Shown in pieces: positions 31,302 through 31,506 of a DNA stretch of 64,000 bases. The first letter of the stretch is position 1. The number at the start of each line of letters is the position of its first letter. This stretch comes from an uncultured Mycoplasmatota bacterium. GTDB taxonomy: Bacteria > Bacillota_I > Bacilli_A > RF39 > UBA660. Below the pieces are notes generated by a model. It was not told the DNA's origin and made no database searches. It saw nothing but the letters and a program-made list of their open reading frames with translations. The stretch spans positions 125-64,124 of the forward strand of contig URDT01000003.1 in the NCBI GenBank assembly GCA_900546745.1. The letters run 5' to 3'. Made by a program: the position numbers and the translations under genes.

Positions 31302-31330
31302 TTGACTTTTAAAATAAAAACTATTATTAT
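31302..31330 (+). promoter_or_regulatory. promoter of the recombinase leader (copy 2)
   Basis: TTGACT-17 nt-TATTAT. Confidence 0.6.
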
Positions 31331-31387
31331 AAATAACCAATAAATGACAAGCAGTATCCGTCTTTTATTAGAAAGCGAGGTACATCT

Positions 31388-31462
31388 ATGGTCAAATACA
31401 TATTTCATTTAAATAAAATTAATAATAGAAATATAAGAGGAGTCAAGAGTATTACTTGTTAA
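31388..31462 (+). CDS. leader peptide uORF (24 codons), copy 2
   Basis: Same SD and first five codons as copy 1. MVKYIFHLNKINNRNIRGVKSITC. Stop lies 6 nt before the terminator 3' arm. Confidence 0.55.
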   Translation: MVKYIFHLNKINNRNIRGVKSITC

Positions 31463-31484
31463 TGCTTTTGTCTCCTCTTTTTTC
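31435..31484 (+). terminator. intrinsic terminator / attenuator (copy 2)
   Basis: Arms identical to copy 1, loop 21 nt instead of 24, followed by a T-run. Confidence 0.7.
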
Positions 31485-31506
31485 GTAGAAAAAGGAGTGA
31501 TAAAGT

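Follow-up and report, generated by a model that had tools for sequence, protein, structure and literature searches.

The 64,000-nucleotide (nt) stretch of DNA analysed here (the window: contig URDT01000003.1, assembly GCA_900546745.1, from an uncultured Mycoplasmatota bacterium) carries two RNA leaders, at positions 26316-26523 (copy 1) and 31302-31506 (copy 2), each located 5' of a large serine recombinase gene and each containing a short upstream open reading frame (uORF) that runs into an intrinsic terminator. Comparison with related leaders makes it very likely that this uORF is translated and selected in cis. The role favoured for it, with moderate confidence, is antitermination of recombinase transcription by a ribosome that occupies the 5' arm of the terminator hairpin; we infer that translation raises read-through and that the structure at the 5' end of the leader sets how often this occurs.

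Both leaders share a layout, on the plus strand, of a promoter, a 5' hairpin formed by an inverted repeat, a uORF with its own Shine-Dalgarno (SD) sequence and ATG, and the terminator. A promoter scan assigned TTGACT-17-TATTAT to copy 1 (26316-26344) and the same -35 box, 17-nt spacer and -10 box to copy 2 (31302-31330), in the latter case as a consensus match only; a TTGACA/T-17-TAnnAT box is kept at the same position in related loci. The 5' hairpin, termed P1, has the same sequence in both copies (26353-26383 and 31339-31369), with arms AAUAAAUGAC and GUCUUUUAUU enclosing the loop AAGCAGUAUCC, and lies near the predicted 5' end of the RNA. A GAGG SD core (31377-31380 in copy 2) is found 7 nt ahead of the uORF start codon in both copies (ATG at 26402 and 31388). 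The uORF itself comprises 25 codons and a TAG in copy 1 (26402-26479; peptide MVKYINYLNKNYKVISRGVKGISLN) and 24 codons and a TAA in copy 2 (31388-31462; peptide MVKYIFHLNKINNRNIRGVKSITC), the latter ending within the 3' strand of the terminator stem. In copy 1 the terminator (26449-26501) consists of a 48-nt hairpin (26449-26496; dG -27.7 kcal/mol) followed by a U tract, and in copy 2 (31435-31483) of a 45-nt hairpin (31435-31479; dG -23.7 kcal/mol) with one U.U mismatch and a 5-nt apical loop, again followed by a U tract. RNAfold renders the hairpin of both copies as one continuous stem of 8 bp, the U.U mismatch and 11-13 bp, closed by an apical loop of 4-5 nt. Hairpin and U tract together end 22-23 nt ahead of the recombinase start codons at 26524 and 31507, and each leader, taken whole, folds more stably than its shuffled versions (z = -5.2 and -4.7 for copies 1 and 2, respectively).

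Relatives of these leaders were gathered in two ways, by similarity of the recombinase (80 loci, numbered below with the prefix L) and by an exact 18-nt motif of the hairpin (95 stretches). This yielded 111 distinct recombinase upstream regions, of which 95 have a terminator and 93 also an SD-preceded start. Nearly all come from metagenome-assembled genomes (MAGs) of uncultured gut "Bacilli/Tenericutes", e.g. CAG:417, CAG:460, CAG:878 and Candidatus Faecisoma, and the leader is present 5' of homologous recombinases in most of the 80 loci found by similarity as well as in about 90 loci found by the hairpin motif. The uORF of these 93 leaders has 18-26 codons and is open up to the hairpin entry in all of them, running past the 3' end of the hairpin in none, whereas each of the other two frames is open from the ATG to the hairpin in just 7 and 4 of the 93 (~6%). 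At the 25% GC of the window, in which the standard genetic code is used, many stop codons are expected by chance alone. When the uORF interiors were grouped at 70% similarity or less, all 16 resulting families proved to be open, for which shuffling gives probabilities of 0.11-0.31 each and a product of about 1e-11.5. The start codon is ATG in 91/93 leaders, and an SD-like core is positioned 6-13 nt ahead of the start (91/93 distinct leaders where scorable). The open frame of all leaders and families, set against the off-frame counts, argues that the uORF is under selection; a short leader reading frame with its own ribosome-binding site, maintained by selection, is what an attenuator is expected to possess.

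The peptide itself appears to be irrelevant. On comparative grounds, the trait under selection would be a ribosome that starts at this site, enters the 5' arm of the hairpin and finishes translation upstream of the point where the terminated transcript ends. From the ATG to the hairpin anchor, the leaders measure 38, 40, 41, 42, 43, 45, 49-54 or 58 nt, and the conserved hairpin is read in frames 0, 1 and 2 in 41, 30 and 22 leaders, giving the C-termini ...RGVKGISLN*, ...KRSQRY* and ...KEESKVLV*; even the leaders of one N-terminal family, MIKSTYNIFK..., use all three frames. Conservation is lowest in the uORF interior, where pairwise identity averages 0.57 (hairpin, 0.71; 5' element, 0.66), and beyond an N-terminal M-x-K/R the peptides are unrelated across families, lack runs of regulatory codons and are rich in K, N and Y rather than hydrophobic. 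The use of all three frames, coupled with the poor conservation of the interior, argues that the peptide is not selected. The end point of the uORF is confined to the hairpin: in 93/93 leaders the stop codon lies inside it, with 7-31 nt left to the 3' end of the stem.

A translated uORF under selection had already been the conclusion of the original prediction, which was drawn from the two copies in the window. This conclusion holds, but on evidence other than that offered for it, as the frame-preserving argument does not survive. The 3-nt difference between the terminator "loops" of 21 and 24 nt is real, but RNAfold places these segments in the paired upper stem, the indel lies at the apex of that stem and, with two sequences, a multiple of three has a chance of 1/3. 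The expectation that uORF length would change only by multiples of three is contradicted by the ATG-to-hairpin distances of the 93 leaders, which take every residue modulo 3, and the range of stop positions given above likewise contradicts a constant spacing between the stop codon and the hairpin arm. Frameshifting indels, proposed alongside premature stops as the mark of a purely RNA-based element, were thus found; however, no premature stop precedes the hairpin in any of the 93 leaders, so that a purely RNA-based element is not the answer either. The descriptive claims fared better. Recomputation returns the same 47 nt between the ATG and the terminator arm in both copies, the alignment agrees that the basal arms of the terminator are identical, including the T.T mismatch (U.U in the RNA), uORF codons 6-16 mostly differ (8 codons) with both frames open, and the 90-amino acid (aa) proteins encoded upstream, described as about one-third identical, match at 32/90 residues.

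The terminator is itself well supported. Among 31 non-redundant relatives, 6/12 consensus pairs of its stem are maintained through changes on both sides, and alternations between GU, AU and GC are common. These compensatory and G.U changes identify the terminator as an RNA helix on the plus strand, not a protein-binding DNA palindrome. An intrinsic terminator whose stem is backed by compensatory changes is therefore interposed between the promoter and the regulated gene, as required of an attenuator, and the canonical U tract that follows the hairpin in all families argues for a transcriptional role. No competing (antiterminator) helix was seen, the terminator being self-contained in the minimum free energy (MFE) structure of 88/93 whole leaders. 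In the absence of a competing RNA fold, a ribosome is the simplest cis-acting agent that could prevent the terminator from forming. Searches of Rfam 15 found no related family: at the gathering score only four tRNAs are reported in the window, and at E <= 10 the best sub-threshold matches to the leaders have E > 1. A promoter-like match is also present on the minus strand of the terminator region (26460-26433; TTGACT-16-TATAAT, 11/12), its -35 box being the reverse complement of GGAGTCAA, which is conserved in the terminator 5' arm. A good -10 box at the right spacing accompanies it in 26/90 related leaders, against about 10% expected, which hints weakly at a possible antisense RNA.

A covariance model was built of the 5' element, and 64 hits, 42 of them distinct, were aligned. 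P1, formed by AAUAAAUGAC and GUCUUUUAUU in the window, is paired in 87.5% of cells, two of its pairs change on both sides, and its covariation score exceeds those of all 500 shuffles and all slid controls. One position that is U.U in both window copies is A-U, G-U, U-A or U-G in other leaders. The loop segment (A)GUAUC is complementary to GGUAC(U) in the SD region of the uORF; this pairing is found in 87.7% of cells and is essentially invariant, making a pseudoknot or alternative pairing between P1 loop and SD plausible but unproven. The uORF SD or AUG is predicted to be largely paired in every family, the probability that the SD is unpaired being 0.07-0.3 in most. The extended SD-sequestering hairpin drawn by RNAfold, with a CUUUU/GAAAG inner helix, was discarded as it contains many unpaired cells and performs no better than shuffles.

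These features allow a mechanism to be proposed. A predicted strong sigma-A-type promoter would start the RNA, the first ~35 nt of which would fold into P1. About 50 nt into the transcript, the SD and AUG would open a uORF of 18-26 codons reading into the 5' arm of a terminator of ~22 bp and always stopping inside it. By default, the polymerase would outrun the first ribosome and the terminator would form, releasing a leader RNA of ~145-150 nt and no recombinase. A ribosome that initiates promptly would instead reach the 5' arm before the polymerase has cleared the U tract, blocking the hairpin and allowing transcription of the recombinase gene. Initiation on the uORF would be throttled by the complementarity of its SD to the P1 loop, through a pseudoknot or alternative pairing, such that the fraction of transcripts with prompt initiation, set by the masked SD, would limit read-through and recombinase synthesis. 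The stop codon inside the hairpin would keep terminated transcripts from becoming non-stop mRNAs. Between the ATG and the last residue of the U tract there are 85-106 nt (median 92), so short a span that termination should be the default outcome: in E. coli, a terminator located no more than ~100 bp into a reading frame retains its efficiency, as the leading ribosome is still too far behind the polymerase, whilst ribosomes at nearby stop codons repress terminators (PMC4824070). Termination ahead of a stop codon yields non-stop mRNA in that organism (PMC4824070), and a stop inside the hairpin in every leader is as expected if non-stop leader transcripts are avoided. A doubtful extension of this mechanism is a two-tier mobility switch, in which the 5' pseudoknot would sense an input (an element-encoded factor, temperature or free ribosomes) and only a ribosome keeping pace with the polymerase would then open the terminator.

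A number of observations weigh against ribosome-dependent antitermination. The transcription start, the terminated RNA and translation of the uORF are predictions. Bacillus subtilis polymerase is reported to outrun ribosomes, a behaviour that would make such a device inefficient, and the hosts here are of the Bacilli class. The pairing between P1 loop and SD lacks covariation support, and the nucleotide sequence of the terminator hairpin is conserved beyond the needs of pairing, hinting at an additional constraint. The ATG or SD has been lost in five leaders, L010 (ATT), L033/L082 (ATA), L041/L131 and L145 (GAGTTAC), plus the degenerate L144, and three leaders with such a loss still precede a full-length recombinase reading frame. 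Furthermore, some close relatives of the recombinases have no leader at all, indicating that the device is dispensable; in these (L034-L042, L054, L078, L050 and L038) a plain promoter and SD follow the 90-aa gene, and in L003 (~3950-4000) a deletion running exactly from one TTGACA, in the -35 box, to another, in the terminator 3' arm, has removed the leader. Lastly, the only precedent on a mobile element, orf12 of Tn916, has been questioned experimentally (bioRxiv 10.1101/2021.03.24.436905).

Some of these points could also be accommodated by an element of RNA and protein alone, in which the terminator is opened by a trans-acting factor (the 90-aa protein, the recombinase or a host protein) or serves as a constitutive leaky damper, and the uORF has no role in read-through. 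The exact hairpin 18-mer recurs in about 90 loci with different uORF families, more than pairing would demand, the adjacent 90-aa protein is confidently folded without a structural match, and an intact recombinase still follows a handful of leaders whose start codon or SD is defective. Against this stand the SD and ATG, which are conserved at correct spacing, and the open frames of all 93 leaders and 16 families at 25% GC, which are very hard to explain without selection on translation when off-frames are open in ~6%; this account is judged unlikely. Alternatively, the leader could be a stand-alone small gene or small RNA acting in trans, through a peptide of ~20-25 aa or an RNA of ~150 nt, with the recombinase expressed by incidental leakage. 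A promoter, SD, reading frame and terminator with the stop codon in the terminator stem is indeed the normal layout of a small gene, and sequence conservation extends to both the P1 loop and the hairpin. However, small proteins and type I toxins are recognised by a conserved and usually hydrophobic peptide, and the peptides here are neither: their C-termini fall in three frames, their interiors have 57% nucleotide identity and their K/N/Y-rich composition is unlike that of type I toxins. Moreover, the window contains no complementary target of the P1 loop elsewhere and the leader always lies directly 5' of a recombinase, all of which renders a function in trans quite unlikely.

Translation of the uORF might instead act after transcription, by altering mRNA stability through access of RNases to the 22-bp stem or by unmasking the ribosome-binding site of the recombinase. 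A device of the latter kind may exist in a sister recombinase lineage (L067, L073-L075), where a mini-uORF abuts a hairpin that masks the recombinase SD, and the terminator 3' arm and U tract (CUCCUCUUUU) are complementary to the A-rich SD region of the recombinase. In the present leaders, however, accessibility of the recombinase SD and AUG in read-through transcripts varies by family (0.15-0.84, for correctly placed starts), their MFE partners differ, and the canonical U tract is retained throughout. Masking of the recombinase ribosome-binding site by the uORF region or the 3' arm was rejected, not being consistent across families, and a post-transcriptional role is regarded as very unlikely. 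It is highly improbable that the recombinase acts on the DNA of the identical block shared by the two copies, or of the palindromic hairpin, either as an attachment (att) site or as an autoregulatory operator. In favour of such a site, serine recombinases recognise imperfect palindromes of 40-50 bp, many of them adjacent to the recombinase gene, and the identity of the block contrasts with diverged flanks. However, in >20 loci the left end of the element directly follows the CCA of a tRNA or transfer-messenger RNA (tmRNA) gene; the 90-aa gene and the leader thus lie within each unit, and the block is not a recombination site. In addition, both stems vary by G.U and compensatory changes, which is the behaviour of RNA pairing and not of protein half-sites; the att-site and operator readings were rejected on both counts.

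Ribosome-coupled antitermination has its closest parallel in the pyrBI attenuator of E. coli, where a leader reading frame (pyrL, 44 codons) is likewise translated across an intrinsic terminator with no alternative antiterminator hairpin. There, a ribosome close behind the polymerase physically prevents the terminator from forming (PMC5021804; PMC4824070). The defining feature, a reading frame translated through the hairpin, is also found here, as 93/93 uORFs enter the 5' arm and end short of the 3' end of the stem. Despite this, pyrBI differs in having a longer reading frame, coupling by UTP-sensitive pausing and a biosynthetic operon in enterobacteria as its target, whereas the uORF described here stops inside the hairpin, has its own SD masked by a 5' hairpin, shows no evident pause signal or nucleotide logic and precedes a mobile-element recombinase in low-GC Bacilli. 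U-rich stretches ahead of the hairpin are found in many leaders, as is expected at 25% GC. A second parallel is the Ptet/orf12 leader located 5' of tet(M) in Tn916, which also belongs to a Firmicutes mobile element, has a short leader reading frame overlapping a terminator and was proposed to control read-through; according to a later summary of Su et al. 1992, this read-through ultimately reaches the excision genes (bioRxiv 10.1101/2021.03.24.436905). Unlike the present case, the Tn916 model invokes rare codons and tetracycline, and a resistance gene is regulated first. No sequence similarity between the two was noticed and, whilst toeprinting and start-codon mutation gave no support to the Tn916 leader peptide (bioRxiv 10.1101/2021.03.24.436905), the evidence for selection on the reading frame here is comparative and strong.

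The leaders trpL, hisL and pheL, and those of ermC, cat and msrD/mef, resemble this one in that a short translated uORF governs a downstream gene. In those systems, stalling at regulatory codons or at drug-dependent arrest motifs switches between alternative hairpins, whereas no codon runs, conserved peptide or alternative hairpin is evident here; thus neither mutually exclusive antiterminator and terminator hairpins nor a run of regulatory codons, the hallmarks of the trp/his type, is present. For the surrounding elements, as opposed to the leader, the closest match is provided by the CcrB-like ssrA islands of Dehalococcoides (McMurdie et al. 2011, PMC3146451), which are tandem integrative mobilizable islands with a large serine recombinase beside attL at the 3' end of the tmRNA gene (PMC3146451). 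The elements described here differ in targeting many tRNA genes in addition to tmRNA and in having a single forward recombinase after the 90-aa gene; no uORF leader has been described for the Dehalococcoides islands, and a literature search found nothing specific on a uORF or leader peptide 5' of serine recombinases or integrases. By these comparisons, the leader is classified as a probable form of ribosome-mediated transcription attenuation, resembling pyrBI and the proposed orf12 mechanism of Tn916, with a new class of regulated gene.

The leader recurs in about a hundred uncultured gut-bacterial genomes and represents a compact, sequence-defined candidate mechanism for keeping the recombinase of an integrative element silent yet inducible, a form of control that is, to our knowledge, known for only a few model elements. 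The reading of one hairpin in three frames constitutes a clean natural experiment that separates selection for translating from selection for a peptide. If read-through is ribosome-dependent, the leader would offer a handle on transcription-translation coupling in low-GC Gram-positives, and it could serve as a small part for the synthetic control of serine integrases. Were the two-tier switch to be true, an entire family of tRNA/tmRNA-targeting elements would have its excision and integration linked to the translational state of the host, and functional ribosome-polymerase coupling would occur naturally in a lineage of the Bacilli, where coupling is thought to be weak.

The alignment confirms the reported block of complete identity and extends it from 78 to 80 nt (26337-26416 = 31323-31402), spanning the -10 box, P1, the SD and the first five uORF codons; its 38-nt core has two exact occurrences in the window, against 0 expected. 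Within this block, the leader beside the closest relative of the copy 1 recombinase (98% aa identity) shows 3 differences, and those beside the closest relatives of the copy 2 recombinase (80%) show 5-7, whereas the window copies show none, even though identity between their recombinases is no more than 49% overall and 65% across the first 250 aa. As the copies differ less from each other than from the leaders of their own closest relatives, intragenomic homogenisation is indicated; gene conversion or recombination between neighbouring leaders accounts best for the perfect match and was probably superimposed on strong general conservation. In other tandem arrays (L004, L006 and L030), the two leaders differ. 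Complete identity is therefore not, by itself, evidence for function or constraint.

The copy 1 leader precedes an intact large serine recombinase gene (rec1; 26524-28398, plus strand; 624 aa; Pfam Resolvase, Recombinase and Zn_ribbon_recom). That of copy 2 (rec2; 31507-33444, plus strand; Pfam Resolvase and Recombinase) is split by an in-frame TAA at 32290-32292 into reading frames of 261 and 367 aa and is a probable pseudogene, meaning that the second leader precedes a gene that is probably no longer functional. The two proteins share 49% identity over 550 aa and have sub-threshold NCBIfam similarity to XisF and CcrB. Among 89 complete recombinase reading frames of the relatives, 23 are disrupted (<500 aa) by nonsense or frameshift changes involving all three stop codons, and many of these elements may be decaying or the MAG assemblies may be imperfect. 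An alternative genetic code was considered as the origin of the split recombinases and uORF stops and was rejected, given that all three stop codons interrupt genes and that TGA ends 5/39 long reading frames of the window.

Each leader lies in an element that begins with a 90-aa gene, and the elements form a tandem array behind tRNA-Thr: unit 1 (25935-30918), unit 2 (30919-42712) and a truncated unit 3 from 42713. The 90-aa gene is found at 26039-26311 in unit 1, at 31026-31298 (plus strand, directly 5' of the leader) in unit 2 and at 42813-43085 in unit 3, where no leader or recombinase follows. The third of these genes is 82% identical in nucleotide sequence to the second, over a 278-nt repeat (42808-43085), and is followed by a fragment of an IS4-family (IS4-like) transposase (43231-44112). 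Among the 242 homologues of the 90-aa family, the 120 that were listed lack both a Pfam domain and any name beyond "hypothetical"; the protein has no match in Pfam, PHROGs, NCBIfam or PDB sequences. Its AlphaFold2 model (pLDDT 95) is a beta-rich fold with two helices for which a fold search found no significant match in PDB or BFVD. Its gene always comes first in the element, which makes a role as directionality factor or regulator conceivable. Between tRNA-Thr and the first 90-aa gene, at ~25983-26006, a hairpin with a T run (CTAACTAGAAATAGTTGG TTTTTTT) is also kept in relatives, and no obvious promoter is seen between it and that gene.

Unit 1 additionally carries a Mob_Pre relaxase gene (28643-30058) 3' of rec1. 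No conjugation genes were seen in the units, which, judged from their gene content, look like integrative mobilizable elements. The 90-aa gene starts about 100 nt after the end of a tRNA or tmRNA gene in >20 loci, with target identities of Cys-Gly, Gly, Met-Leu, Leu, Lys, Ala, Arg, Thr, Trp and tmRNA. The conserved left end of the element, GATTGATAGGAAACTCGAAC..., starts directly after the CCA of the target gene, ~590 nt 5' of the recombinase start and ~470 nt 5' of the leader. This arrangement points to a family of serine-recombinase elements that targets the 3' ends of tRNA and tmRNA genes. The same module was observed at 25861-43100 in the window and at loci L007, L012, L015, L018, L022-L027, L030, L032, L033, L035, L040, L044, L052, L056, L058, L062, L064, L065, L068 and L074. 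Fragments resembling tRNA 3' ends, ...GGTTGTTCAACTACAACCCCACAGGCACCA and ...CTGGCACCA, are located at the junctions of units 1 and 2 (30889-30918) and units 2 and 3 (42683-42712). Each unit thus seems to carry or leave a mimic of its target site, which would explain the tandem accretion; second units are also seen in L004 (8319-8740), L006 (8175-9300) and L030 (8991-9320). Searches of phage and plasmid collections by megablast and blastn gave no match, and the hairpin 18-mer has a single match in IMG/VR.

The sister recombinase lineage mentioned above (L067 at ~380-490, L073, L074 and L075) possesses a different leader, ~110 nt 5' of the recombinase start at 4001. It comprises an SD and a 6-codon uORF (AUG GGA CUU UUG UAC UUU UAA) that stops directly before UCUCUCUUU, the 5' strand of a hairpin (dG -26.2 kcal/mol; z = -4.5) that sequesters the recombinase SD, AAGGAGAGA. 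In this predicted fold, the sister leader looks like a case of translational attenuation and, as it represents another uORF device, uORF-dependent control appears to recur in this recombinase family.

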